A stretch of DNA of 64,000 nt from an uncultured Alphaproteobacteria bacterium (GTDB lineage Bacteria > Pseudomonadota > Alphaproteobacteria > SP197), in contig OY282363.1 of assembly GCA_958295695.1 (NCBI GenBank), positions 1,113,156-1,177,155 on the forward strand, read 5' to 3'. A program made the translations under genes and the position numbers. Positions 6,446 through 57,394 of the stretch are shown piece by piece (within the stretch, counting starts at the first letter, position 1; every line of letters begins with the position of its first letter). The notes beneath the pieces were generated by a model. The model worked only from the letters and a program-made list of their open reading frames with translations, was not told where the DNA came from and ran no database searches.

Positions 6446-8155
6446 TCAGCGGAGGAGGTAGAGCTGGCCCAGGGCGACCCTGTCGACCGGCTCGCACCAC
6501 GCGCGTTCGCCGTCGATGAAGACGTCGAAGGTCTGCGGATCGACCCGGATGTCCGGCAGGGCGGCGTTGTGCAGCATGTCGCCCTTGGAGAGGTCGCGGG
6601 TGGGGCCGATGGCCGTCAGCGGCTTGGCCAGCCCGAGGCGGCCGGCGAGGTCCCGCTCGATCGCGCTGGGGTGCGCGAAGGTGGTGGAGATCGCCGGCGG
6701 CGCCGCGCCGACGGCGCCCCAGGCGCCGCGCATCCGCACGGGTTCGGCCGCGCCGACGCTGGCCGCCGCGTCGCCGATGGCGGCCCACGCCGTGAAGCCG
6801 CCCTTGATGACGGTCTGGGGCTTGAGCCCGAAGAAGGCCGGCTTCCAGAGCACGATGTCGGCCATCTTGCCGGGCTCCAGGCTGCCGACCTCGCCGTCGA
6901 TGCCGAACACGCGCGCCGCGTTGATCGTGATCTTGGCGAGATAGCGCAGGATGCGGGCGTTGTCGGCGCCGTCGAACGGCTCCTCGGGGAGGGGCCCGCG
7001 CTGGTCCTTCATCTTGCTCGCGAGCTGCCAGCAGCGCGCCACGACCTCGTTGACGCGCCCCATGCCCATGCTGTCGGAGCCGAACATCGAGATCGCGCCG
7101 ATGTCGTGCAGGATGTCCTCCGCGGCGATGGTCTGGGCGCGGATGCGGCTCTCGGCGAAGGCCACGTCCTCGGGGATGTCCGGCATCAGGTGGTGCACGG
7201 TCATGGTCATGTCGAGGTGTTCGTCGAAGGTGTTGACCGTGAACGGGTTGGTCGGGTTGGTCGAGGACGGCAGGCAGTTCTCCTCGCCGTTGCAGCGGAT
7301 GATGTCCGGCGCGTGGCCGCCGCCGGCGCCCTCGGTGTGGTACATGTGGATCGTGCGCCCGGCGATCGCCGCCATGGTCGATTCGTAGAAGCCGGACTCG
7401 TTCAGCGTGTCGGTGTGGATCTGGACCTGGAAGTCGAGCTCGTCGGCGACGGAAAGCGCGGTGTCGATCGCCGCGGGCGCCGCGCCGTAGTCCTCGTGGA
7501 TCTTCACCCCCAGGATGCCCGAGGCCGCCTGCTCGCGGATGCTCCCGGCGTCGTGGGTGCTGCCGCGGCCCAGGAAGCCGAAGTTCATCGGCATCGCCTC
7601 GACCGCCCGCAGCATGTTGGCCGTGGTCCAGCCGCCGCCCGAATCGATGGCGAAGAGCGGCCCGTGGCCGCCGCCCACCAGCGTCGTGAGGCCGGTCGAC
7701 AGGGCGTGCCGCACCAGGTCCGGCGTCTTGAAGTGGACGTGGACGTCGATGCCGCCGGGGGTGGCGATCAGCGTCTCGCCGTGGGCGACCACGGTCGAGG
7801 GCCCGCACACGAGGGCGGGGTCGACGCCGTCCATGACGTCGGGGTTGCCGGCCTTGCCGATCCCGACGACGCGCCCCTCGCGCACGCCGATGTCGCCCTT
7901 CACGACGCCGATGACGGGGTCGATCACGAGCGCGTTGTGGACGACGAGGTCGAGCGCGCCGTCGGCGTGGCGCTGGGCCGCCCGCATGCCCATCCCGTCC
8001 CGGTAGCTCTTGCCGCCGCCCGTGGCGAGCTCCTCGCCGGGGACCAGCCGGTCCTCGGCGACCTCGGCCAGGAGACTGGTGTCGCCGAGCCGCACCCGGT
8101 CGCCCTCGGTCGGGCCGAACGCCGCCGCGTAGGCGGCGCGGGTCATCTCCGCCAT
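6446..8155 (-). CDS. ureC: urease alpha subunit
   Basis: 569 aa. Conserved active-site ligands are present: [19 protein letters not shown]..., [24 protein letters not shown] (carbamyl-Lys), [47 protein letters not shown]. Confidence 0.95.
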
Positions 8156-8156
8156 G

Positions 8157-8858
8157 TCACGCTCCCCGGAAGCCGCGCGCGCGGGCGCGTTCGAGGGCCG
8201 CGGCCCTGACCCCGGGGTCGTGGATCGACCCCTCGGTCAGCCCGTGGAACCCGCTCACCGCGCCCTCGCCCCCGATCTCGACCAGCGCGACCTCGCGGCT
8301 CTCGCCGGGCTCGAAGCGGCGCGCGGCGCCCGCGGGTACGTCGAGGCGCATGCCGAAGGCGGCGGCGCGGTCGAACTCCAGCGCCGCGTTGGCTTCGAAG
8401 AAGTGGTGGTGGCTCCCGACCTGCACGGGCCGGTCGCCCGTGTTGAGGACCGTGAGCGTCGCCCCGCGCCGGCCCGCGTTCAGCGCCACCGCGCCGTCCG
8501 CCGCGACGACCTCGCCCGGGTGGATGTCGGCGCCGTCGACGGGCGTCTCGCCGCCGGGCCGGACGGGATCGTGCACCGTGATCAGCTTGGCGCCGTCGGG
8601 GAACAGGCCCTCGACCTGGACGACGGGCATCAGGCGGCGCACGCCCGGCATCACGTCGTCGGCGCTCAGGATCGTCGCGCCCCAGGCCGCGAGGTCCGCG
8701 ACCGTCCTGCCCTCCCGCGCGCCCTCCAGCAGGGCGTCGACGATCAGGGCCTGCGCCTCGGGATGGTTGAGCTTCAGCCCCTTCTCCTTCCTGCGCCGCG
8801 CCATTTCGGCGGCGGCGAAGATGACGATCCGCTCCATCTCGGTCGGTGTCAGCATCAT
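8157..8858 (-). CDS. ureAB: urease gamma-beta fused subunit (UreA-UreB fusion)
   Basis: 233 aa. The N-terminal ~100 aa match UreA ([35 protein letters not shown]...). The C-terminal ~130 aa match UreB ([40 protein letters not shown]...[10 protein letters not shown]). There is a 2-nt gap to ureC. Confidence 0.9.
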
Positions 8859-8909
8859 GGCCGCGGTCCTCCCGTCCGGGGGCGAGGATAGCGGGCGGGG
8901 GAGGGAAAA

Positions 8910-9968
8910 TCAGTCGGCCATGGCGTCTTTCCCACTCGCGCCGGCGGCGCGCGGGGAGGCCCGAGACGCCGCGGTCTTGTCGACGCCCTTGAGGTCGTGG
9001 GCGAAGACCCGGTTGAAACGTTCGAGCTGGTACTCGCCCGCGACCGTCGGTTCGTAGCGCGGCGTCTCGTCCGCCGGCAGGCCCAGGTCGCGCGGGTCGA
9101 TCACGGTGTGGAAGGCCGGGTCGTAGAACACGGCCATCGAGAACCGCTCCCGGCCCGAGCTGTTGACGACGCGGTGCCGGGTCGAGGCGAAACGGTCGTT
9201 CGACCAGCGCGCCAAGAGGTCGCCGACATTGACCAGCAGGGCGCCCTCGACCGGTGGCGCGGCGAGCCATTCGCCCTCCCGGCTCATCACCTGGAGGCCG
9301 CCGAGGCTGTCCTGGCAGACCAGGGTGAGGCAGCCGAAGTCGGTATGCGCGGCCACGCCGAACTGGTCCTTGCCGGCCTCGGCGGGCTGCGGCGGGTAGT
9401 AGATCAACTGCCCCCGCGCCATGGGCTTCTCGAAGTGCGGCGCCAGCGCGTCGGGTTCGAGGCCGAGCCCGACGCAGACGGCGCGCAGGAGCCGGGACGC
9501 GGTGGCGCACCCTTCCCGGTAGAACCCGTCGTAGATGGCCCGGCGCATCCCGGGCTGGCGCGCCGGCCACCGGTTCGGCCCCCGGAACGGCGTGCCCGCG
9601 ACGACCTCGGGGTCGTCGGGATCCAGCTCCAGCCCCCAACTGAAGAGCTCCTTGAGATCGGTCCTGGCGGCGCCGGTCATGCGCGCCTCGCCGAGCCCCA
9701 TCCAGCCGCGGTTGATGTCGTTCACCGCGATCTCGGCCTTCCTCCGTTCGTCCTGGAGGAAGAAGGCGCGGGAGGCCGCGAAGGCCCGCTCGACGGTCCC
9801 GGGCGCGACGCCGTGGTTCCCGACGTAGTAGAAGCCCAGGCCCCGGCAGGCGGCGACGATGGCGTCGGCCGTCCGTTCCAGCGCGCCGGCCTCGCCGGCC
9901 AGCAGCGGGCCGAGGTCGATCGTCGGGATCTCCTCGGCGGTGACCGGTCTGGCGTGGGCGTAGGGCAT
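8910..9968 (-). CDS. 2-oxoglutarate/Fe(II)-dependent oxygenase, IPNS/DIOX_N family
   Basis: ~352 aa starting MPYAHARPVTAEEIPTIDLG, with the GFYYVGNHGV motif and the HTDFGCLTLV...HRV His/Asp/His core. The ORF track extends it artefactually to 10493. Its stop lies 52 bp from the ureAB start on the same strand. Confidence 0.8.
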   Translation of the reverse strand: MPYAHARPVTAEEIPTIDLGPLLAGEAGALERTADAIVAACRGLGFYYVGNHGVAPGTVERAFAASRAFFLQDERRKAEIAVNDINRGWMGLGEARMTGAARTDLKELFSWGLELDPDDPEVVAGTPFRGPNRWPARQPGMRRAIYDGFYREGCATASRLLRAVCVGLGLEPDALAPHFEKPMARGQLIYYPPQPAEAGKDQFGVAAHTDFGCLTLVCQDSLGGLQVMSREGEWLAAPPVEGALLVNVGDLLARWSNDRFASTRHRVVNSSGRERFSMAVFYDPAFHTVIDPRDLGLPADETPRYEPTVAGEYQLERFNRVFAHDLKGVDKTAASRASPRAAGASGKDAMAD

Positions 9969-10262
9969 CGCGGTCTCGCTCGACGCCGCGTCATCATGGC
10001 CCGGCCGCGCCGGGCGTGTGAAGAGGCTTGTTCGACCGTGAAGCGCGGGACGAACCGCGCCGGCGCCGGTCTCGTCCGCGTCGCGGCGTTCCACGAGCCC
10101 GATGGCGGGACCCGCGCGCGTGAACTCGAGCGAGCCTTCGGCGGCCGCCCAGGGCGAGGGGATTTCGGGGCGGGTGTCGGGAGAACGCTCTTCCCCCCAT
10201 CCCGAACAGGCGCGCGGCGCCGTATCGAGGGAGCGCCCTCCTTCGCCCCGCCGCGAAGTTCC

Positions 10263-10291
10263 GGGGGGTTGACGGGGGGGTAGGGGTAGGA
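10263..10291 (+). other. G-quadruplex-forming motif (G6-N5-G7-N2-G4-N2-G2)
   Basis: ggggggttgacgggggggtaggggtagg, in the intergenic region between the 2OG oxygenase gene and the low-GC island. Confidence 0.3.
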
Positions 10292-10384
10292 GACTGCCGA
10301 AGTCCGGTTGGAAGGATCGCGGAAGCATGACGAGGTTGTTTCCCCGCAACGCCCCCCGCGCGTCGGGCTCGGCGGCCCATGGGC

Positions 10385-18363: not shown

Positions 18364-19503
18364 ATGGCGCATACGTTCGAGCGGGTTCCCCTGATGGCGC
18401 CCGGCCCCGGAACCGAGCGGTTCCTCGCGGCGCACCGCTTCGGAACGCCGGGCGCGCGGCCCAAGCTCTACTTCCACGCCGCGCTCCACGCCGACGAGCT
18501 GCCGGGCGCGCTGGTCCTCAACCGGATGCTGGGCTGGCTGAAGGAGGCCGACGCCGAAGGCGGTCTCTCCGGCGAGGTCGTCGTCGCGCCCTGCGCCAAC
18601 CCGGTCGGACTTTCCAACCGCGTCATGGGCTACCATCTCGGACGCTACGACCTGGACGGCGACGGCAACTTCAACCGCTGGTATCCGGACCTGGGCCGGA
18701 CGGTGGGCGACAGGGTCGGCGACCGGCTGGGCGACGACGAGGCGGAGAACGGCCGCCTGATCCGGGAGGCCTACCGGGAGGCCATCGAGGCGTGGGAGGC
18801 CCACGGCGAGGCCGACACCCTGCGCAAGACGCTGATGGCGCTGTCGGCCGATTGCGACTTCGTGTTCGACCTGCACTGCCACGGCGAGGCGGTCCAGTAC
18901 ATCTACATGCCGGAGAACCACTGGGAGCGCTACGGCGATCTGGCCGCCGAGCTCGGCTGCCGGACGGCGCTGCTGTTTCCGACCGACGCCGGGACCACCT
19001 TCGACACCGCGCCGACGGTCGTCTGGCATCGGCTGCGCGAATGCTTCCCCGACCGGCCGATCGCGGAGCCGCCGTTCACGACCACCCTGGAGCTGCGCGG
19101 CCAGAACGACGTGGGCGACGACATCGCGCTGCGCGACGCGCGCGGCCTGTGGCGCTTCCTGCAGCGCCACGGGATCGTCGCGGGCGATCCCGGCGACCCG
19201 CCGGAGCTGTTGTGCGAGCCGACGCCGGTCTCGGGTTCCGACAATCTCGTGGCGACCCGCGCCGGCGTCCTGTCCTACCGCGTCGATGTGGGCGGCCGGG
19301 TCGAGGCCGGCGACGTGGTGGCCGACATCGTCGATCCGGCGGAGGCGGACTTCGACGCGGCGCGCACGCCGGTGAGGAGCCGGGCGACGGGCGTTCTCTA
19401 CGGCCGGTCGATGAGCCGTCTGGTGCGGCCGGGCCAGTCGTTCGCCGTGGTGTCCGGGCGCGAGGCGCTTCCGGCCGGCGACCCGCCCGCGATCGACTAC
19501 TGA
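18364..19503 (+). CDS. succinylglutamate desuccinylase/aspartoacylase (AstE/AspA) family deacylase, paralog 1
   Basis: 379 aa with the AstE_AspA N-terminal Zn-site pattern FHAALHADELPG and DLHCHGEA. This is the family that contains DoeB (N-acetyl-diaminobutyrate deacetylase). Confidence 0.75.
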   Translation: MAHTFERVPLMAPGPGTERFLAAHRFGTPGARPKLYFHAALHADELPGALVLNRMLGWLKEADAEGGLSGEVVVAPCANPVGLSNRVMGYHLGRYDLDGDGNFNRWYPDLGRTVGDRVGDRLGDDEAENGRLIREAYREAIEAWEAHGEADTLRKTLMALSADCDFVFDLHCHGEAVQYIYMPENHWERYGDLAAELGCRTALLFPTDAGTTFDTAPTVVWHRLRECFPDRPIAEPPFTTTLELRGQNDVGDDIALRDARGLWRFLQRHGIVAGDPGDPPELLCEPTPVSGSDNLVATRAGVLSYRVDVGGRVEAGDVVADIVDPAEADFDAARTPVRSRATGVLYGRSMSRLVRPGQSFAVVSGREALPAGDPPAIDY

Positions 19504-19510
19504 GGCCGCC

Positions 19511-20614
19511 GTGACGCACCGCAAGGAGCATATCGACCTGCCCGTGGCCAGCCTCGGCACCCGGCGCCGCCTCGTCGTGCACCGCTTCGGGACGCCGGGC
19601 GCGCGGCCCAAGGCCTACCTCCACGCCGCGCTGCACGCCCAGGAGCTTCCCGGCGTCGTGGTCCTGGACCGCCTCGTCGCGCGCCTCCGGGAGGCCGACG
19701 CGGCCGGATCGGTCGCGGGCGAGGTCGTGGTCGTCCCCTTCGCCAACCCGATCGGGCTGTCCCAGCAGATCATGATGGAGGCCCAGGGCCGCCACGACCT
19801 CGATACGGGCCGCAACTACAACCGCGGGTTCCCGGATCTTATCGACGAGGTCGCCGACGCGGTCGACGGCCGCCTCGCCGGCGACGGCGCCCGCAACGTC
19901 GCGTTGATCCGCGAGGCCATGGCGTCGGCGCTCGCCGCCCGCCGCGACGCGCGCGAGGCGGACGTCCTGAAGCTCACGCTCCTGCGCCTGTCCTGCGACG
20001 CGGACCTCGTCCTCGACCTCCATTCGGCCTGGGAGGCGCTGCTCCACCTCTTCGTCACCGACCTCAACTGGCCCGGGGCGTCCGACCTCGCTCGCCAGAT
20101 GGGCGCCGAGGCGGTGCTGGTCGACCGCGGCAACCGTATGATGACGTTCAAGTCGGCCCATGCGCTCCTGTGGAAAGAGCTCGCGGCGCGCTTCCCCGAC
20201 CGTCCGGTCCCGCCGGGCAGCCTCGCCGCCGTGGTCGAGCTACGCGGACAGCGCGACGTCGACGACCGCTTCACCAAGCCGGACGCGGACAACCTGTTCC
20301 GCTGGCTGCAACGCCGCGGCGCGGTCGCCGGCGACCCCGGACCCCTGCCGCCGCCAGCGTGCGAGCCGCGCTCGGCGGACGGGCTGCGCCGCCTCTTCGC
20401 GGCGGAAGGCGGCATCGTCATCTACCGCGGCGCGCTCGGCGACCGCGTCCGGGAAGGCCGGGCCTTCGCCCACATCCTCGATCCCGACACGGGCCGCCGC
20501 ACCGCCGTCTCCGCGCCCGCCGACGGCCTGCTCTACGCCCGCCGTAGCCACCGGTTCGCCCGGAAGGGCCAGTATTTCGCCGCCATCGCGGGCGACACGT
20601 TCGTCGAGGATTAG
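19511..20614 (+). CDS. succinylglutamate desuccinylase/aspartoacylase (AstE/AspA) family deacylase, paralog 2
   Basis: 367 aa, colinear with paralog 1 (LHAALHAQELPG, DLHSAWEA). Starts 8 bp after paralog 1, so a tandem pair. Confidence 0.75.
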   Translation: MTHRKEHIDLPVASLGTRRRLVVHRFGTPGARPKAYLHAALHAQELPGVVVLDRLVARLREADAAGSVAGEVVVVPFANPIGLSQQIMMEAQGRHDLDTGRNYNRGFPDLIDEVADAVDGRLAGDGARNVALIREAMASALAARRDAREADVLKLTLLRLSCDADLVLDLHSAWEALLHLFVTDLNWPGASDLARQMGAEAVLVDRGNRMMTFKSAHALLWKELAARFPDRPVPPGSLAAVVELRGQRDVDDRFTKPDADNLFRWLQRRGAVAGDPGPLPPPACEPRSADGLRRLFAAEGGIVIYRGALGDRVREGRAFAHILDPDTGRRTAVSAPADGLLYARRSHRFARKGQYFAAIAGDTFVED

Positions 20615-20746
20615 GACGGCGGCGAGGGAACCGTCCGCGGCCCGCCGGCATCGCCGATGGGGCCGCCCGGACGACTCCGATCCGGCTCTTCCCTTTCAGT
20701 TATCCGGTTTCTCTCTTTCAGTTATACGATCTCGTCCTTTCAATGA

Positions 20747-20794
20747 ATTGTCCTATCGTTTTGAACCGGGAGCGGCGACGGTCCTTGAGTCTGT
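20747..20794. repeat. ~48-bp dispersed intergenic repeat, copy B (core TTGAACCGGGAGCGGCG), also at 2607-2654
   Basis: A 17-nt perfect core plus matching flanks (about 38/48 identity) between two intergenic regions. Confidence 0.5.
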
Positions 20795-20964
20795 CGAGGG
20801 AGACCGGTCCCGATCCAAGCCAATAGGATGACGCTCTAAACGACAGTTTTTTCAAACGGTTAACGGTCCGGAACAGCGGCGGGACAGCTGGTCGAGTCCA
20901 GCGGGAAGGCCGGACATGCCCGCCGTCCGGGCGCGCGGCTTCCGCCTCGCCCGCGCGCCCTGGA

Positions 20965-22203
20965 TCAATCGCGCGCGATCTCACGGAGCGCGGCGATCAG
21001 GCGGTCGACCTCGGCCAGCGTGTTGTAGTGCGCGAGGGAGCAGCGGACGACGCCGTCCGCGGGATCGACGCCGACCGCGTCGAGGATGCGGGGCGCGTAG
21101 AAATGCCCCGCGCCGGCGGCGACGCCCCTGGCCTCCAGGAGCGCAGGGACATCCTGGCTCCTCACGCCCGCGACCGTGAAGCTGAAGGTCGGCGCGCGGC
21201 GGTCGCGGTCGGTCGCGGTCCGGCCGATAACGCGGATCTTCGGATGATCGGCCGCGAAGCCGAGGAAGCGGGCCGAGAGGCTTTCCTCGTGACGGGCGAT
21301 GATCCCGAACACCTGCCGCATGCGGCCGTGGAGGTCGTCGGCGGGCTCGTCCAGATGGTGCGCCGCGAGCGCCTCGAAATACTCGCCGACGCCGACGCAG
21401 CCGGCCGTGAGCTCGTGGTTCGGCGCGCCGGGGTTCATCTTGAGCGGCAGGTCGTCCTCGCCGTGGAAAAAGAAATACTGGCCTTTCGCCTTCAGCAGGT
21501 GTTCGCGCTTGCCGTACATCGCGCCCAGATGCGGCCCGTAGGTCTTGTAGAGGCTGAAGAGGTAGAAATCGACGTCGAGCGCCTTCACGTCGACGCTCGC
21601 GTGCGGCGCGAAGGCCACGCCGTCGACGCAGACCCGGCCCCCCGCGTCGTGGACCGTGGCGGCGATCTCGGCCACCGGGTTCGGGCCGCCCGTGATGTTG
21701 GAACAGTGCGAGAAGGCGACCAGGCGCGTCCTCTCCGAGAGCATCGCGCGCAGCGTCTCGGGCTCCAGCTCGGCGGTCTCCGGATCGACCCGCCATTCGC
21801 GCACCGCGACGCCGGACTCCGCGAGGCGGCGCCAATGGCCGTTGTTGGCTTCGTGATCGAGGTTGGTGACGATCACCTCGCCGCCCACGAGCTCGTCGCG
21901 CAGGGCCGCGGCAAGCGCGATCGCGTTGCGCGTCGTCGAAGGCCCGACGACCACCTCGTCGGGGTCCGCGTTGATCATGGCCGCCACCGTCTCGTGGCCC
22001 TTCCTCATGCGCGCCTCGGCCTCCCGCGCGATCGCCGCGTTGGCGCCGGGCTGCACATGGCATTCGGTCATGTAGTCCCGGACCCGGTCGATCACCGTGC
22101 GGGGCGCCAGGCTGCCGCCGGCGTTCTCCATGAAGGCCCAGCCGTCGTCGAGCGCCGGAAAGAAGGCGCGGACGAAATCGAGGTCGAGCGGCTTGTCCGG
22201 CAC
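20965..22203 (-). CDS. class V-fold PLP-dependent aminotransferase (cysteine desulfurase/isopenicillin-N-epimerase-like)
   Basis: 412 aa with a PLP-lysine context SLYKTYGPHLGAMYG and HCSNITG. Stop of the upstream decarboxylase gene is 4 bp before its start. Confidence 0.75.
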   Translation of the reverse strand: MPDKPLDLDFVRAFFPALDDGWAFMENAGGSLAPRTVIDRVRDYMTECHVQPGANAAIAREAEARMRKGHETVAAMINADPDEVVVGPSTTRNAIALAAALRDELVGGEVIVTNLDHEANNGHWRRLAESGVAVREWRVDPETAELEPETLRAMLSERTRLVAFSHCSNITGGPNPVAEIAATVHDAGGRVCVDGVAFAPHASVDVKALDVDFYLFSLYKTYGPHLGAMYGKREHLLKAKGQYFFFHGEDDLPLKMNPGAPNHELTAGCVGVGEYFEALAAHHLDEPADDLHGRMRQVFGIIARHEESLSARFLGFAADHPKIRVIGRTATDRDRRAPTFSFTVAGVRSQDVPALLEARGVAAGAGHFYAPRILDAVGVDPADGVVRCSLAHYNTLAEVDRLIAALREIARD

Positions 22204-22207
22204 GGCG

Positions 22208-23638
22208 CTACTCCCGGACGCGGGCGGCGTCGCCGAACCGGACGATCCTCTCGATCGTGCCGGCGAGGTCGTCGTCGCCGATGCGGGGATTGATGGTGCA
22301 GAAGCGCAGGCAGGTGCGCCCCTTGAGTTCCGTGGAGGTCACGAAGGCGAAACCGTCGTCGAGCAGGGCCGCGACGATCCCGCGCTGCAAACCGCTCGTT
22401 TCCGCCTCGTCGAGGCCGTCGCGCAGAAGACGGAAGGTCACGACGGCCAGCGTGGGCTCCGTGACGATCTCGAAGCGGCCGCTCGCGCGCATCATCGCCG
22501 CGGCGCGTTCCGCGGTGGCGATGCCGCGCCGGACGGCCCGCCGGAAGGCCGCCGCGCCGAACACCTTGAGCGAGAGCCACAGCTTGAAGGCGCGGAGCCC
22601 GCGCGAGAGCTGGAGGCCGCGCTCGGAGAAGTTCACCTCGCCGTCGCCTTCGGCGACATCCTGGAGATATTCGGGGCTGGCCGCGAAGGCATGGTTCAGC
22701 AGGCCCGGCTCGCGCACGAAGCAGATGCCGGCCTCGTAGGGCTGGAACAGCCACTTGTGGGGGTCGATCACCACGGAATCGCCGCGCTCCATGCCGGCAA
22801 GCAGCGCGCGGCCGTCCTCGACGAGGGCGGCGGCGGCGCCATAGGCGCCGTCGATATGGACCCACAGTCCGAACTCGTCCGCCAGATCGGCGATTCCGTG
22901 GAGGTCGTCGACCGCGCCGGTGTTGGTTGTTCCGGCGTTCGCGACGATGCAGAACGGCCTGAGGCCCGCCTCGCGGTCGCGCCCGACCGCCGCGCGCAGC
23001 CGGTCGAGGTCGATACGGTAGTCGTCGCCCGTGGCGACCGTGCGAAGCTGGTTCGCGCGGAAGCCCAGGATGCGCAGGGCGCGCGCCACGCAGCTGTGGG
23101 TCTGGTCCGCGCAGTAGGCCACGGCGCCGGTCATGTCGTCGCCCAGCTTGTGGTCCCGGGCGACGGCGAGCCCGATCATGTTGGCGACCGAGCCGCCGCT
23201 GGTGAAGACGCCGTCGGCGTGGCCCTCGAGGCCCGCGAGCTCCTTCACCCACTCGAGCGTCGTGAGCTCGCATTCGACCGGCCCCGGCGTCTCGCGCCAC
23301 ATGCTGGCCGCGGCGTTGTAGCCCGACGCGAGCGCGTCGGCGACCGCCGCGACATAGTTGGACGGTCCCGGCACGAAGGCCAGGAAGCGGGGATGCGCGA
23401 TCCGCCCCATCGCGCCGAAGACATGCCGGTCGGCGAAGGCGAGCGCCTCCCTCCAGTCCCCGGCGTCCTCGGGCAGCGGCTCGCGCAGGGCGCCGCGCAA
23501 GGTCGCGAGATCGGCGTCGACGGCCGCGGGCGTCCCGGTCATGGCCGACCAGTGCTCGACCAGCCTGTCGACCGCATGGTAGCCCAGCGCCCGCATTTCC
23601 TCGGGCGAGAGCTCGAGCCGCCCCGGGTCCCTGGTCAT
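22208..23638 (-). CDS. group II pyridoxal-dependent decarboxylase (DABA/glutamate/aromatic-amino-acid/CSAD family)
   Basis: 476 aa. PLP-Lys motif SVVIDPHKWLFQPYEAG and GGSVANMIGLAVAR are typical of Pyridoxal_deC. Confidence 0.8.
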   Translation of the reverse strand: MTRDPGRLELSPEEMRALGYHAVDRLVEHWSAMTGTPAAVDADLATLRGALREPLPEDAGDWREALAFADRHVFGAMGRIAHPRFLAFVPGPSNYVAAVADALASGYNAAASMWRETPGPVECELTTLEWVKELAGLEGHADGVFTSGGSVANMIGLAVARDHKLGDDMTGAVAYCADQTHSCVARALRILGFRANQLRTVATGDDYRIDLDRLRAAVGRDREAGLRPFCIVANAGTTNTGAVDDLHGIADLADEFGLWVHIDGAYGAAAALVEDGRALLAGMERGDSVVIDPHKWLFQPYEAGICFVREPGLLNHAFAASPEYLQDVAEGDGEVNFSERGLQLSRGLRAFKLWLSLKVFGAAAFRRAVRRGIATAERAAAMMRASGRFEIVTEPTLAVVTFRLLRDGLDEAETSGLQRGIVAALLDDGFAFVTSTELKGRTCLRFCTINPRIGDDDLAGTIERIVRFGDAARVRE

Positions 23639-23678: not shown

Positions 23679-24161
23679 TCAACGGGCCGGCGACGCCTCC
23701 GCCCCTCCCAGCCAACGGGCGAGCGCCTTGTCCGGATCGGCGAGGCGCTCGACCGAATCGTACCAGTGGGTTTGCCAGCCGCGCTCCGGGAGCCCGGCGA
23801 ACAGCATCAGGTTCAGGGGATAGACCTCGCTGTCGGTGCAGCGCCTGAAGTCGTCGCGAAAGAGGAAGACCGCTTTCCCCCAGGCGATCGCCATGCCGAG
23901 CTCCACCATGACTCCCTCGTCCGGCGGGCAGCCGTTGACGACCGCGAACAGGCCGTCCGCCTCGCGCACATCGCCGAGGTCGGCCTGCCCGATCCGGTAG
24001 GCCCAGCCGGAGCTCGCCCGGTCGATCTGGTTGTTGCGGGCGAACGGCTCCCATACCTCGGCGCCGATCGCTTCCAGGGCCGAGACGAGTTCCGCCAGCG
24101 GCCCGGCGCGCTGCTGCGTCGAAAACCCGTAGGGGTTCGCCAGATAAAGGGTCCTGGTCAT
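23679..24161 (-). CDS. nucleoside 2-deoxyribosyltransferase-fold protein (NDT/DNPH1/MilB-like putative N-glycosidase)
   Basis: 160 aa MTRTLYLANPYGFS...GLFAVVNGCPPDEGVMVELGMAIAWGKAVFLF, a Rossmann-like NDT-family pattern. It sits 40 bp upstream of the decarboxylase on the same strand. The track start is overextended. Confidence 0.6.
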   Translation of the reverse strand: MTRTLYLANPYGFSTQQRAGPLAELVSALEAIGAEVWEPFARNNQIDRASSGWAYRIGQADLGDVREADGLFAVVNGCPPDEGVMVELGMAIAWGKAVFLFRDDFRRCTDSEVYPLNLMLFAGLPERGWQTHWYDSVERLADPDKALARWLGGAEASPAR

Positions 24162-24330
24162 GTTCCCGCGCCTCGATTCCCGTCGGCACCCCCGACGGAC
24201 ATTCATACACGACCTTCGGGAGTTTATGAATCTGGATGGCGCGGCTCCGAACATTCGCGATCCGGCCCGGCGCGTCTGGCGACGCGGGCGGCCTCGTGCC
24301 ATGGTCCGCCCGGATCGGAGGGAGAACGCG

Positions 24331-24876
24331 ATGACCGCCGCCGCCGAAGGCCGCCTGACGCCGCTCGCGCCCGAAGAATGGGACGCTTCGCTGGCCGGTG
24401 TCCTGGCGGGCCTCGGGGGTCCGCTCAACATCCACGGCGTCATCGCGCGCAATCCGGCGCCGATGCGAAGCTACATCGGCCTGCGCGGCCACGTGGTGGC
24501 CAGTGGCTCGCTGAGCCCGCGCCAGCGGGAGCTCGTCATCCTCCGGGTCGCGCGCCTGACGGGCTGCGCCTGCGAGTGGGGCCACCATGTGGCGCGGGGC
24601 CGCGCCGCCGGGTTCGACGACCGCGAGATCGCGCGCATCCGGGACGGATCCGGGGGCTGGCCGGCCGACGAGGCGCTCCTGATCCAGGCGGTCGACGACA
24701 TGCTGTCCGGCTGGCGGATCTCGCCCGGCACATGGTCGGCCCTGTGCGCCGCGTTCGACGACAACCGGCTTCTCGACGCCTTCTTCACCGTTGGCGTCTA
24801 CGTCACCCTGTCGGCCATCCTGAACACGGCCGGGGCGCCGCGCGAGGACGGCTTCGCGGCGGAGGGCCTGGCGTGA
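24331..24876 (+). CDS. carboxymuconolactone decarboxylase (CMD/AhpD-like) family protein
   Basis: ~181 aa containing a CxxxH-like core (LTGCACEWGHHVARG) typical of the CMD family. Confidence 0.65.
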   Translation: MTAAAEGRLTPLAPEEWDASLAGVLAGLGGPLNIHGVIARNPAPMRSYIGLRGHVVASGSLSPRQRELVILRVARLTGCACEWGHHVARGRAAGFDDREIARIRDGSGGWPADEALLIQAVDDMLSGWRISPGTWSALCAAFDDNRLLDAFFTVGVYVTLSAILNTAGAPREDGFAAEGLA

Positions 24877-25241
24877 CCGCGACGATCGCCTTTCATCTGG
24901 CGGCGGCCCTGTCGGCGCTCGCGCTCGGCGCGGCCAATCTGGCGTTCGCCAAGGGCACGCCGCGCCATCGCCTCGTGGGCTGGATGTGGCTCGCGGCGAT
25001 GGCGTGCGTGACGCTGCCGTCGTTCGCGATCCGCGAGGTCGGCCAGGGGAGCTTCAGCTGGATCCACGGCCTCTCCGTCTGGACCCTCGTCAGCATGGCG
25101 GTCGCGGTCGCAGCCATCCGGCGCAACAGGGTCCGGCTGCATGCCGGGTTCATGGTCGGAACCATGGCGGGCGTCGTCGTCGCCGGCCTGTTCGCGCTCG
25201 CGCCCGGGCGGGAGATCAGCCGGATCCTGGGCTACGGCTGA
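24873..25241 (+). CDS. small integral membrane protein (DUF2306-like, 3-4 TM)
   Basis: GTG start overlapping the CMD stop (GTGA). ~122 aa, highly hydrophobic. Confidence 0.4.
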   Translation: MTATIAFHLAAALSALALGAANLAFAKGTPRHRLVGWMWLAAMACVTLPSFAIREVGQGSFSWIHGLSVWTLVSMAVAVAAIRRNRVRLHAGFMVGTMAGVVVAGLFALAPGREISRILGYG

Positions 25242-26048
25242 GCAGGCCGGCCGGCGATGCGGGCTCCGTCTCGCGCGGGTTTCCCGTCGACCAGGATGGC
25301 GTCGACCTTCCCGGGGTAGAAGCAGAGATAGCCGGCGATCCGGCGCGCCTCGTCGAGCGGTTCGGGATAGAACCAGACCGCGTTCTCGACGGTCGCGCCA
25401 CCGGCCCGCAGATGGTGGTGGCGCGCCCGGCCCTTGTAGGGACAGCCGGTGACGCGGTCGGACGGGAGCAGGGCGGCGGCCTTCACGTCCTCGCGCGGGA
25501 TGTAGTAGCGCGGCGGGAGGCCGGTCTCGAACAGGAAACGGGCGCGGGCCGTGCGGGCGACGGTCTCGCCGCCGACGATCACCTCGACCGGCCGGCCGCT
25601 CTCCAGGATATCGACGCGCACGAACGGGTCGCGGGCGTGGACGAAGACCTCCTCGTCCTCCTCGTACCAGCGGTCCATCCGGTCCCAGGCGAAGCCGAGC
25701 CAGCCGGCGAGGGCGGCGAACTCGTCGTAGGGCGTCTCGTAGCTCCAGACGGCGTTCTCCTCCGCCCGCCCGTCCGCGGCCAGCGTGTAGTAGCTGGCGT
25801 GGCCCTTGAACGGGCACCGGGTGCGGCGGTCCGTTCGCGTCATGAGGTCCATGTCGGCGTCGTCGCGCGGGATGTAGTAGAGCGCGATGTGGCCGGTCTC
25901 GCAGACCACCGCCGCGCGCGGTGTCGAACACGGCGCGTCCCCCGAAGACGGCGCGCACGCGCTTGGCGCATGGCGCGATGTCGACCCGGTAGTCCGGGCG
26001 GGCGGCGTATCCCGGCGCGCCGTTCCGTCGCGCTTCGGCGGTCGCCAT
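25232..26048 (-). pseudogene. tandem double DUF427 protein, disrupted by an apparent 1-nt frameshift near 25935 (or sequencing error)
   Basis: Frame B begins MATAEARRNG...VRAVFGGRAVFDTAR. Frame A continues AAVVCETGHIALYYIPRDD...CPFKGHASYYTL and a second copy ...YYIPREDV...CPYKGRARHHHL. Deleting one G in gcgcgcggcggtggtc restores a continuous two-domain ORF. Confidence 0.55.
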
Positions 26049-26294
26049 GGCTCCTCCTCCCCGTCGGTGCGGCGGCCATTATGCCCGGAGCGGGCCGCGG
26101 GCGACACGATCCGGGCCTAACCGGCTTTGCCGGAATCGCTCCGGGACCGCGATTGCGGCCCCGCCGGCTTGCCGGCGCCCGCTCAAGGCGCGGCCCACGG
26201 GGCCGCTTGCCGCGGGCGACGAGCAAGCCACGGCGTTTCCGTCTTCGACGGAAACGCTGTAGGTTCCGGCGGCTCGGGCGCGACGGGGAGAGAC

Positions 26295-27302
26295 ATGAGC
26301 GACGACGACATCGACCGGGGCGTGCCCGAGGCGCGCAAGCTGGCTTGGGGCGCGGTCTACAAGCCGCGCTATTCCGGCGTGGCGACCTTCATGCGCCAGG
26401 AGTTGAGGGAAGATCCGGACGCCTGGGACGGCGTCGAGGTCGGCCTGATCGGCGCGCCCTTCGACGGCGGCGTCACCAACCGCCCGGGCGCCCGCCACGG
26501 ACCGCGCGCCCTGCGCGACCAGTCGACGCTGATGGGGCGCGTCAACCACCAGACCGGAGTCAGGCCCTACGACTGGGCGGTCTCCGCCGACCTCGGCGAC
26601 GTCCCGATCGAAGGCGTCTACGAGCTCGACCGCGCGATCGACGACATCGAGGCGTTCTACGCCAAGGTCGTGGCGGCGGGCGTCGTACCGCTCACGGCCG
26701 GCGGCGACCATTCGATCACGCTGCCCATCATGCGCGCGATCTCGAAGCACCGGGGCGGGCCGGTCGGCATGGTTCATTTCGACGCCCACTGCGACACGGG
26801 CCCGGAGCTCTTCGGCCACAAGCACCACCACGGCGGGCCCTTCCGCTGCGCCGTGGAGGACGGCGCGCTCGATCCCCGGCGCACGATCCAGATCGGCATC
26901 CGCGGGCCCGCCGAGGCGCTGTGGGACTTCAGCTACGACTCGGGCATGACCGTGATCCACATCGAGGAGCTCTACGCCATGGGGCTCGACGCGGCGGTCG
27001 CCAGGGCGCGCGATGTCGTCGGCGCCGGGCCAACCTATGTCAGCTTCGATGTCGACGGCATGGATCCGGTCTATGCGCCCGGCACCGGCACGCCCGAGGT
27101 GGGCGGCTTCACCGCCTTCGAGGCCCAGAAGATGCTGCGCGGCCTGATGGGGCTCGACATCGTCGGCGGCGACGTGGTCGAGGTCTCCCCGCCCTTCGAC
27201 ACGGCCAACATCACCGCGCTCAACGGCGTCCAGATGATGTGGGAGATGCTCTGCCTGATGGCCGACAGGATCGGCCGGGAGAAAGGACGGATCGAGACCT
27301 GA
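26295..27302 (+). CDS. agmatinase/arginase-family ureohydrolase (agmatinase, guanidinobutyrase or guanidinopropionase-like)
   Basis: 335 aa with Mn-binding motifs GGDHSIT, DAHCDT, SFDVDGMDP. The product is predicted to be urea plus an amine. Confidence 0.8.
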   Translation: MSDDDIDRGVPEARKLAWGAVYKPRYSGVATFMRQELREDPDAWDGVEVGLIGAPFDGGVTNRPGARHGPRALRDQSTLMGRVNHQTGVRPYDWAVSADLGDVPIEGVYELDRAIDDIEAFYAKVVAAGVVPLTAGGDHSITLPIMRAISKHRGGPVGMVHFDAHCDTGPELFGHKHHHGGPFRCAVEDGALDPRRTIQIGIRGPAEALWDFSYDSGMTVIHIEELYAMGLDAAVARARDVVGAGPTYVSFDVDGMDPVYAPGTGTPEVGGFTAFEAQKMLRGLMGLDIVGGDVVEVSPPFDTANITALNGVQMMWEMLCLMADRIGREKGRIET

Positions 27303-55746: not shown

Positions 55747-56925
55747 TCAGCGCGTCACGAGGTCGAGCGGGGCGCGGTGGAGCGGCTCGCATCCCCGCCG
55801 CGTGACCGACACGCTGCGGCCCAGCGCCATGCCGTGGCCGTTCTCGCTGTTCGCCAGGATCATGTGCAGGAAGAAGACCATGTTGGGTTCGATCGCGACC
55901 GGGTTGCCATGGAAGAACATGGGCCAGTCCATCCAGTTGGGCGGGAAGGTCGCGCCCATGGAATAGCCGCAGGCGTTGAGGCGGTGATCGCGGAAGCCGT
56001 GCTCGTCCATGACGCGCGCATGGGCGTCGAAGACGTCGCCCATGGTCGATCCGGGCCTGACCGTCTCCTCGCAGGCCGAGAGCGCCTCGCGGCACGCCTC
56101 GTACATCGCCTTGTGGTCCTCGTCGGGGTCGCCGAGGAGGATCGTGAGCATCTGGGCGGTATGGTAGTGCCGGTAGGACGCGGCGTACTCCAGCATCAGT
56201 TGGTCCCTGGCCTCGAGATGGCGGCGGCCCGTGTGGTAGCGCACCAGCAGCGCCGAAGGTCCGGACCCGACGATCCAGTGGCCGGCCGGATAGTCACCGT
56301 CGCCGGAGAAGACCGCGCCCTGCATGGCCGCCAGGATATCGCCGGTAAAGACGCCCGCCCTGGCCGTGTCGCGCGCGGCCCGATGCGCCTCGTCGCCCAG
56401 TTCCGCCGCGTTCTTCATGAAGGCGAGCTCGGCCGGGCTTTTGACGAGCCGCAACCGGGTCACGAGGTCGGAGGCGTTCCGGATCTCGCAGAAGCCGTCC
56501 AGCCTCGGTTTCAACCGCTCCCAATGGGCCGCCGTCAGGCCGTAGGCGTCCGTCTCCACGCCGACGCGCTTGCCAGCGAGCCCCATCCCGGCTGCCATGT
56601 CCTTCAACTCGCCGTAGGGGTCGGCCGTGTCGCTGTCGACCCAGACGCGCACATCCTCGACGATCGAGGTGTAGGCCGCTTGGCGCAGATCCGGAGAACG
56701 GGTGAGCAGGGCGAGCCCGCCGTCTCCGGTCAGCACGAGGCACTGGAACATGACGAAACCCGTCGTGTCGTAGCCCGTGAGGTAGTACATGCTCTCTTGG
56801 CGGAACATGAGGAGGCCGTCGAACCCGTTGTCGGCCATGGCCCGCCGCGTGCGCGCGAGGCGCTCGTCGTATTCGCCGCGGGCAAAGTGCAGAACCATGA
56901 TCGCCTCCCGGGTCTCCGGCCGCAT
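55747..56925 (-). CDS. M24 family metallopeptidase (Xaa-Pro aminopeptidase/creatinase-like)
   Basis: 392 aa with a creatinase_N plus pita-bread domain. Confidence 0.75.
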   Translation of the reverse strand: MRPETREAIMVLHFARGEYDERLARTRRAMADNGFDGLLMFRQESMYYLTGYDTTGFVMFQCLVLTGDGGLALLTRSPDLRQAAYTSIVEDVRVWVDSDTADPYGELKDMAAGMGLAGKRVGVETDAYGLTAAHWERLKPRLDGFCEIRNASDLVTRLRLVKSPAELAFMKNAAELGDEAHRAARDTARAGVFTGDILAAMQGAVFSGDGDYPAGHWIVGSGPSALLVRYHTGRRHLEARDQLMLEYAASYRHYHTAQMLTILLGDPDEDHKAMYEACREALSACEETVRPGSTMGDVFDAHARVMDEHGFRDHRLNACGYSMGATFPPNWMDWPMFFHGNPVAIEPNMVFFLHMILANSENGHGMALGRSVSVTRRGCEPLHRAPLDLVTR

Positions 56926-56965
56926 CCTGCCAACACATCGCGCAAGCGGCCACCGGGAATTCAGG

Positions 56966-57394
56966 TCATGGCGAACCGCATCCAGATAAACGCGGCATAG
57001 CCCGGCAGGAAGAGGGCGCCGAGGCGCGGCCGATGCGGCGGCGCGCGACCGGCGCCACGAAACAGGCGGTCGGCGCGAGCATGGCGGCCATGGCGAAGCG
57101 CACGTCCGCTCCGCCGGCGTCGACCGGCGTCACGACGGCCACGACGCCCAGGAGGTTGAACAGGTTGCCGCCGAGGACGTTGCCAAGCGCGAGGTCGGCA
57201 TGGCCGAGCAGGGCCGTTTCGATGCTGACGAGAAGCTCCGGCGCGGACGTTCCGAACCCCACGAGGATCACGCCGACGGCGATTTCCGAGCCCCCGAGGC
57301 GACGGGCCAGGGCGGAGCCGCCGCGGACCAGGGCCTCTCCGCCGAGGAAGAGCGGGACGAATCCGGAAACGGTCGGGACGAGAGGCATGAACAT
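56966..57394 (-). pseudogene. truncated Na+/Ca2+ exchanger (CaCA, Na_Ca_ex) N-terminal fragment
   Basis: MFMPLVPTVSGFVPLFLGGEALVRGGSALARRLGGSEIAVGVILVGFGTSAPELLVSIETALLGHADLALGNVLGGNLFNLLGVVAV is an alpha-1 repeat only, after which hydrophobicity is lost. Full-length family members are about 320 aa. Confidence 0.4.

Follow-up and report, generated by a model that had tools for sequence, protein, structure and literature searches.

A 64,000-nucleotide stretch of DNA from an uncultured alphaproteobacterium (contig OY282363.1 of assembly GCA_958295695.1; the whole stretch is called the window here) carries two adjacent, related genes of the AstE/AspA superfamily, and the question raised by this locus is why two such enzymes should lie side by side and what each of them might hydrolyse. 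The first open reading frame (ORF), P1, occupies 18364-19503 (+ strand) and encodes 379 residues; the second, P2, occupies 19511-20614 (+ strand), starts with GTG and encodes 367 residues. From the ORF list and homology, both were assigned as CphZ-like Zn amidohydrolases, P1 of an ‘HG’ subfamily and P2 of an ‘AWE/KS’ subfamily. The two proteins are 45% identical across 365 residues (E 4e-100), and both match the Pfam family PF24827 (AstE_AspA_cat), P1 at 56.0 bits and P2 at 56.3 bits against a gathering cut-off of 25. The window DNA is ~72% GC and the codon-position GC pattern of the two frames fits this (GC at third codon positions, GC3, is 0.92-0.93), so P1 and P2 are taken to be real genes. 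A preliminary description of the locus had called them tandem, colinear AstE/AspA-superfamily paralogs, and this holds. Our favoured answer to the question, to which we would give a probability of roughly 0.6, is that both P1 and P2 are active CphZ-like amidohydrolases, translated together and complementary in pocket charge, and that they cooperate on two substrates, related N-acyl amino acids or isodipeptides other than β-Asp-Arg.

By sequence, the nearest solved relative of both proteins is CphZ (8EIN/8EIP; E 6e-57 for P1 and 3e-69 for P2), the cyanophycin dipeptide hydrolase of Acinetobacter baylyi, a β-Asp-Arg hydrolase (PMC9974463). AlphaFold2 (AF2) models were built from family alignments, with predicted local distance difference test (pLDDT) scores of 93.1 for P1 and 95.4 for P2, and compared with solved structures using Foldseek. 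The P1 model superimposes on CphZ with a template modelling (TM) score of 0.92 and an rmsd (root mean square deviation) of 1.7 Å at 33% identity, the P2 model with a TM score of 0.96 and an rmsd of 1.2 Å at 37-38% identity; overall, the matches to 8EIN/8EIP span TM 0.92-0.96, rmsd 1.2-1.8 Å and 33-38% identity. Fold, length and two-domain architecture are common to P1, P2 and the CphZ/AotO enzymes (A. baylyi CphZ; Pseudomonas aeruginosa PA0891; CDD M14_PaAOTO_like). The next-closest solved structures are two Shewanella structural-genomics proteins, 3FMC and 3LWU (TM 0.82-0.87, identity 21-25%), putative CphZs reported to retain the Arg and Asp pockets of CphZ (PMC9974463), whereas P1 and P2 do not.

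The preliminary description had placed both genes in a DoeB/AstE/AspA family. DoeB/EutE, a Zn-dependent N-α-deacylase (N-α-acetyl-L-2,4-diaminobutyrate deacetylase, 6TWL/6TWM), shares the superfamily. The structural match to 6TWM is weaker than that to CphZ (TM 0.63-0.68, identity 16-19%), and the DoeB equivalog model TIGR02994 gives partial matches only, of 31.6 bits for P1 and 24.2 bits for P2 against a cut-off of 402.7; with a shortfall of more than 370 bits, DoeB membership was rejected. The succinylglutamate desuccinylase AstE and mammalian ASPA, which bring carboxypeptidase-like Zn chemistry to bear on N-acyl acidic amino acids, belong to the same superfamily but are very distant. The P1 model reaches a TM score of 0.37-0.41 with AstE 1YW4 (identity 14-15%), 1YW4 does not appear among the listed P2 matches, and an NCBIfam search at E ≤ 0.01 matched neither protein to an AstE or ASPA model. 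Given the missing family matches and the poor structural similarity, AstE and ASPA were also rejected as nearest relatives; nor are there ast genes, or an arginine succinyltransferase (AST) operon, near the pair in the window. Both proteins share >30% identity over >70% coverage with A. baylyi CphZ, the cut-off by which the CphZ authors counted the family (PMC9974463). As the sequence scores and the TM scores of the AF2 models favour CphZ over both DoeB and AstE, we place P1 and P2, by sequence and predicted fold, within the AstE/AspA (M14) superfamily in its CphZ/AotO branch and not in its DoeB branch.

Residues were mapped onto CphZ by sequence alignment at 33-38% identity, backed by the fold superposition. 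The alignment comprised 254 sequences, of which 232 were homologues of 330-440 residues from two database searches and 22 were proteins translated from related loci; the numbering of the CphZ paper equals PDB chain numbering + 9, a relation derived from the alignments. In CphZ, Zn is bound by H50, E53 and H179, E251 is the essential catalytic residue, and the Arg moiety is held through its carboxylate by R102, N112 and R113 (PMC9974463). P1 and P2 both align the Zn ligands of this H-x-x-E…H triad at H42, E45 and H171, the catalytic Glu at E243 and the carboxylate clamp at R94, N104 and R105, and their mechanism is presumably that of CphZ/AotO. The full set of seven, catalytic and clamp residues together, is found in 43 of 44 P1-clade sequences, in all 46 P2-clade sequences and in all 153 canonical ones. 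Mean identity inside each clade, P1 or P2, is ~65%; that the seven residues persist despite this argues that both proteins are under purifying selection as active enzymes, and both look catalytically competent as predicted from the alignment. The suggestion that one copy was catalytically altered or regulatory therefore loses its footing. Both proteins retain every catalytic residue on sequence alignment backed by the fold superposition and sit in subfamilies unrelated to DoeB, which is essentially the outcome that the preliminary description had named beforehand as speaking against its proposal.

The substrate pockets differ from that of CphZ and from each other. The acidic pocket for the Arg or Lys side chain in CphZ is formed by D222 and E223, neither of which can be mutated without loss of activity; the β-Asp moiety is contacted by D181 and by K366, a position that is K, H or R among CphZs, and S216 is less conserved (PMC9974463). 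Position 181 is Asp in 153/153 canonical sequences, His in 43/44 of the P1 clade (H173) and Ala in 46/46 of the P2 clade (A173). Its neighbour N182, variable among canonical members, is Gly in P1 (G174) and Trp in P2 (W174). At 366, Lys is found in 128/153 canonical sequences, Val or Ser in 43/44 of the P1 clade (V362 in P1) and Ala in P2 (A358). The 222/223 pair is Asp-Glu in every one of the 153 canonical sequences and Lys-Ser in every one of the 46 of the P2 clade (K214, S215); P1 has D214, which is D or E across its clade, followed by T215, an unconserved position (A, N, T, I or V). Ser at 216 in canonical members is replaced by D208 in P1, often Asp in the clade, and by an invariant N208 in P2. 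Two further positions, A203 and T296 of CphZ, are Ala and Thr in canonical members and in P1 but are R195 and R287 in P2. With D181 and K366 changed to His and Val in P1 and to Ala and Ala in P2 (the latter with an added Trp), and D222/E223 changed to Asp/Thr and Lys/Ser, neither protein is expected to be a β-Asp-Arg hydrolase.

The side-chain-pocket loop itself reads DAGTTFDT in P1 (residues 208-215; 18985-19008, + strand), acidic at 208 and 214, and GNRMMTFKS in P2 (residues 207-215; 20129-20155, + strand), where the alignment columns are near-invariant across the clade as GNxMMTFKS. This loop is the most conserved segment of P2, which points to selection on its substrate binding.

The segment that first drew attention to the pair is DLHCHGEA in P1 (18868-18891, + strand) and DLHSAWEA in P2 (20015-20038, + strand), residues 169-176 in each. 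The divergence is real and not a quirk of one genome, for H-C-H-G is kept in 43/44 sequences of the P1 clade and H-[S/T]-A-W-E in 44/46 of the P2 clade, and it marks a functional difference. It had been read as a divergent second metal/acid motif, and here only one part stands. On alignment to CphZ, H171 is indeed the third Zn ligand (CphZ H179) in both proteins; the trailing Glu, which takes the place of Q183 in A. baylyi CphZ and varies between E, A and Q inside the P1 clade, is therefore not a catalytic acid. As far as the alignment places these residues, the motif difference lies in the specificity pocket for the acyl moiety and not in the metal/acid machinery.

Related loci were collected by exact-protein look-ups, by a scan of 185,579 species genomes and by a metagenome scan, and loci more than 97% identical in DNA were merged, leaving 15 distinct lineages (the loci other than the window carry L numbers below). 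A P1-type gene lies directly upstream of a P2-type gene in all 15. CphZ/AotO genes are typically single, often accompanied by an aot-type ABC transporter or a cyanophycinase, whereas P1 and P2 always form an adjacent pair. In four lineages the pair directly follows moaA, with no EctC (ectoine-synthase-type), Rieske or aminotransferase genes close by, and the pair is the sole constant across lineages. As the two clades are never found apart, P1 and P2 most likely cooperate.

Neighbour-joining trees, the only trees built, recovered the P1 clade and the P2 clade each in 200 of 200 bootstraps; P1+P2 sisterhood was recovered in only 36 of 200. The two clades are ~41-45% identical to each other and each is about as far from the canonical CphZ type. 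A recent tandem duplication is thus not supported, given the low mutual identity, the equal distance to canonical members and the weak sisterhood. A search of 1.84 billion representatives returned 305 CphZ-like family representatives at E ≤ 1e-30, and in it the P2 type forms essentially one cluster at 50% identity.

Two further groups of relatives were noted. A third CphZ-like paralog, P3 (~375-380 residues), directly follows P2 in three lineages and lies 4 kb off in a fourth (L007 6985-8100; L008 11107-12234; L027 9847-10941; L010 15127-16269). Its clade has 200/200 bootstrap support, and its pocket is non-canonical (A181, T216, D222/H223, H or Q at 366) with all catalytic residues intact. 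Four sequences, P0036, P0037, P0040 and P0042, have a P1-like H-G motif but fall outside the P1 clade at ~50% identity. P0042, the only one of these whose locus was looked up (23 contigs; L019 6747-7877, L020 2397-3527), occurs as a lone gene ahead of an aot-like polar-amino-acid ABC transporter operon. P0042 may be intermediate between AotO-type and P1-type enzymes.

The junction between the two genes, TGA-GGCCGCC-GTG (19501-19513, + strand), has a spacer of 7 nt, and the P1 stop codon together with the two bases that follow it supplies a GAGG Shine-Dalgarno sequence. The arrangement of stop TGA, GGC and a start after a 7-nt spacer recurs in seven of the ten junctions compared. Translational coupling would be expected to show such an arrangement, and P1 and P2 are probably one bicistronic, translationally coupled operon. 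Upstream, an element CTTGACAG-N14-CCGACAAG with the core CTTGAC-N17-GACAAG (18308-18337, + strand) lies 27 nt 5′ of the P1 start; it was located by eye in a comparison between lineages. The core is present 25-60 nt 5′ of P1 in 11 of the 15 lineages, whichever gene precedes, and is absent from the four moaA-linked ones. The window also has an extra arm, CTGTCAAG at 18287-18294, which forms a perfect 8-bp inverted repeat with 18308-18315. Judged from its position and conservation, the element is probably a promoter and/or operator of the P1-P2 unit, for some regulator. Consensus scans of 18100-21100 for sigma-70 promoters and intrinsic terminators found no match, the upstream element included, and an Rfam search of the whole window gave none, which rules out a riboswitch or other known RNA. 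The 350-bp gap between P2 and the convergent gene downstream (20615-20964) is lower in GC than its surroundings and contains the direct repeat CTTTCAGTTAT(C/A)CG twice in 30 nt, at ~20686-20730; it has no Rfam match and no terminator-like hairpin.

With the residues placed, a working model of the two enzymes can be set out. By homology to CphZ, Zn would be held by H42, E45 and H171 and E243 would activate the attacking water, and R94, N104 and R105 would clamp the free α-carboxylate of the amino acid leaving on the amine side of the scissile amide. With the CphZ-substrate complex as a guide, both enzymes would target an amide whose amine side is an α-amino acid with a free carboxylate. The acidic pocket of P1 (D208, D214) would suit release of a cationic amino acid of the Lys, Orn, 2,4-diaminobutyrate (DABA) or Arg type. 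The charge-inverted pocket of P2 (K214), together with R195 and R287 if these lie near it, would instead suit release of an Asp- or Glu-type amino acid, anionic or polar, a preference for acidic substrates that would be analogous to that of AstE and ASPA. The acyl group in both is likely to be small or uncharged and not β-aspartyl. The preliminary idea of two different substrates thus finds support in the pocket residues. Its specific form, N-α- versus N-γ-acetyl isomers, fits poorly, because both enzymes keep the clamp for a carboxylate on the carbon beside the scissile nitrogen.

Most likely, P1 and P2 either handle two related intermediates of a single route or make up one heteromeric enzyme. 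The route appears to scavenge nitrogen-rich compounds, and genes for double-EctC cupins, a Rieske oxygenase, a class-V aminotransferase and a pyridoxal phosphate (PLP)-dependent decarboxylase often accompany it. More speculatively, the logic of the arginine succinyltransferase pathway could be borrowed, in which an N-acyl basic amino acid (P1-type substrate) would be converted by the adjacent aminotransferase and a dehydrogenase into an N-acyl acidic one (P2-type substrate).

Several points weigh against this explanation. The charge argument is extrapolated from a single co-crystal structure at 33-38% identity, and R195 and R287 of P2, although gained arginines at conserved positions, are placed by alignment only. 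Among 137 full-length representatives nearest P2, 83 have the D181/D222/E223 triad and 54 (~39%) are non-canonical, so a divergent pocket or altered specificity is in itself unremarkable. Of 1,270 family representatives, the 150 best include no P1-P2 fusion protein, the longest match being 487 residues, and hence there is no Rosetta-stone support for contact between the two. All members come from uncultured metagenome-assembled genomes labelled Alphaproteobacteria, Rhodospirillaceae or Rhodospirillales, several of them marine (TARA). Lastly, the genomic context is inconsistent. Flanks are long enough to judge in 12 lineages, and only seven of these carry double-EctC bicupin genes within 10 kb of the pair, numbering one to six; five lineages have no EctC gene near the pair (L001, L002, L003, L011, L029). 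In three other genomes double-EctC genes have no P1 or P2 close by and stand next to Rieske or 2-oxoglutarate (2OG) oxygenases or an M24 enzyme, so that the link to the pair is facultative.

A refinement of the favoured explanation, and compatible with it, is that P1 and P2 form an obligate heterodimer descended from a duplicated homodimeric CphZ ancestor, with two different active sites or with sites completed in trans; such a complex would process two products, or a substrate that has two amide bonds, within a single assembly. CphZ is a homodimer (PMC9974463), and the pair stays together in all 15 lineages even where every other neighbour differs. The short spacer and the Shine-Dalgarno sequence overlapping the stop favour 1:1 co-translation, and sequence clusters of the two types in the database are nearly equal in number, at ~35 each. 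P2 also lacks the C-terminal tail of 12-15 residues carried by P1, P3 and canonical members. Each protein, however, has its own complete active site and could act as a homodimer. Enzymes of consecutive steps that do not interact are also commonly encoded in tightly coupled operons, and the missing fusion counts here too. We hold the heterodimer tentatively, at somewhat less than an even chance.

The genes around the pair, identified with domain models, bear on the route. Divergently from P1 runs a gene for a Rieske non-haem-iron oxygenase alpha subunit, distantly GbcA-like (17071-18252, - strand, start approximate), orthologues of which stand beside the pair in five lineages (window, L001, L004, L005, L025). 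Downstream of the Rieske gene lies one for a double ectoine-synthase-type (EctC-EctC) bicupin of ~276 residues (15946-16776, - strand), and the last gene of this operon encodes a fusion of an FlK-type (fluoroacetyl-CoA-like) hotdog thioesterase with a DsbA-like thioredoxin-fold domain (14877-15890, - strand), which matched no NCBIfam model. Convergent with P2 is a class-V aminotransferase or cysteine-desulfurase-like gene of the TIGR01976 family (20965-22203, - strand), with orthologues of 74-80% identity near the pair in six lineages (window, L001, L005, L007, L008, L025). It is followed by a gene for a group-II PLP-dependent decarboxylase, distantly L-2,4-diaminobutyrate decarboxylase-like (22208-23638, - strand), whose orthologues lie by the pair in L001 and L025. 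A CMD-family gene also lies downstream of the pair, and farther out in the window are urease, 2OG oxygenase, tandem DUF427, arginase-family and SDR genes. Across lineages, frequent neighbours are genes of Opp/Dpp-type or polar-amino-acid ABC transporters. From its gene content the setting looks like a variable island that scavenges nitrogen-rich small molecules.

Joining these pieces, an obligate P1-P2 heterodimer, the double-EctC arrays and the Rieske oxygenase could give marine and soil Alphaproteobacteria a way, so far unrecognised, of breaking down cyclic-amidine or N-acyl-diamino-acid solutes; as a whole, we consider this scenario unlikely.

Slightly more doubtful still is a scheme closer to the preliminary description, in which P1 and P2 would be DoeB-like deacetylases for N-α- and N-γ-acetyl-DABA, acting after an ectoine-like ring had been opened by a double-EctC enzyme running in reverse. 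DoeB/EutE is tied to ectoine-type chemistry and P1 and P2 have an EctC-type gene nearby; the double-EctC genes of the seven lineages, up to six tandem copies, the diaminobutyrate-decarboxylase-like enzyme and SBP_bac_3 ABC components close by all fit, as do the common superfamily and the acidic P1 pocket, where D208 adds a further Asp and could accommodate a cationic side chain as short as the one in DABA. Against it stands the TIGR02994 shortfall. DoeB, moreover, works as a bimodule with an adjacent M24 hydrolase, EutD/DoeA, and the juxtaposition of eutD and eutE is a recognition mark of catabolic ectoine clusters (PMC8739950). The flanks of the pair, annotated or searched in the window and in 14 further lineages, contain no M24 gene within 10 kb, and the only M24/creatinase-type gene of the window (55747-57129) is 35 kb away. 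The R/N/R clamp, kept in both proteins, serves a carboxylate α to the scissile nitrogen, which N-γ-acetyl-DABA does not have, and the basic P2 pocket is wrong for DABA. The pair also occurs without EctC genes, and double-EctC genes without the pair.

That P1 and P2 are ordinary CphZ isozymes, redundant or complementary, for example for β-Asp-Arg and β-Asp-Lys, strikes us as very improbable. They do pass the family-counting cut-off, and CphZ takes both Arg and Lys dipeptides (PMC9974463). A single mutation of D222 or E223 kills CphZ, though, and P1 has no E223 while P2 has neither; the contacts to the β-Asp moiety are gone from both. Unlike the CphZ/AotO enzymes, P1 and P2 have no cyanophycin genes close by, and a scan of 43 window ORFs turned up no domain of a cyanophycin synthetase or of a cyanophycinase. 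Least probable of all is that one copy is a pseudoenzyme serving as a regulatory or scaffolding subunit, since, common as paralog pairs with one inactive partner are, and despite the lost P2 tail, both clades hold their catalytic and clamp residues and P2 conserves its pocket loop above all else.

Some observations on the surroundings stand apart from the pair. Double-EctC bicupins form at least 600 clusters at E ≤ 1e-10 and are automatically named ‘L-ectoine synthase’ in the sources; our literature search found no paper on EctC bicupins. Besides the window gene, they were located at L013 2115-8329, L004 430-3699, L027 2031-7484 and, in each of L021, L022 and L023, 10001-10843. Tandem arrays occur, with six in a row in L013, among which a GCV_T gene intervenes. 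The EctC iron ligands Glu, Tyr and His, which are described in PMC6344544, can be recognised by eye in each half of the window protein.

Nitrogen-release genes flank the cluster (6446-10502, - strand, and 25232-27302): urease alpha, a urease gamma/beta fusion, a DIOX_N/2OG-Fe(II) oxygenase, a protein of two DUF427 domains and an arginase-family ureohydrolase. By their annotation they are consistent with an island for the catabolism of guanidino, amidino or nitrogen-rich compounds. An AT-rich island of 1.05 kb (10400-11450; GC 31-46% amid DNA of 70-75%) looks from its composition like a recently acquired foreign gene. It coincides with an ORF at 10390-11232 (+ strand) of 280 residues, whose N-terminus is hydrophobic and whose one match, TPR/Sel1-like, is weak and falls below the cut-off (E 7e-4). 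A nucleoside 2-deoxyribosyltransferase-like ORF (23679-24452, - strand) and the CMD-family ORF (24160-24876, + strand) overlap by ~290 nt; because these longest ORFs overlap on opposite strands, the true starts of the genes must be internal. In L001 a HalD/2OG-type gene takes the place of the deoxyribosyltransferase-like gene.

No paper on pairs of CphZ paralogs came up in our literature search. By that search, the two conserved specificity subfamilies (one of them charge-inverted), their obligate, coupled pairing and the recurrent linkage to double-EctC arrays are new, and the double-EctC bicupin family may be more novel than the pair itself. The practical value of the finding is modest until a substrate is found. 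For the CphZ family, described in 2023 as highly specific, presence has been taken as evidence of cyanophycin use; as sequences that pass the cut-off include ones with rebuilt pockets, and about 39% of the 137 representatives are non-canonical, counting ‘cphZ’ by similarity alone over-calls such use. P1 and P2 offer a clean, testable case of a homodimeric hydrolase that is possibly splitting into two specialised partners. Their linkage to multi-copy double-EctC genes is also a handle on the role of orphan EctC-type proteins. If the route that combines the heterodimer, the double-EctC proteins and the Rieske oxygenase is true, it would give these long-unexplained ‘orphan’ proteins a function.

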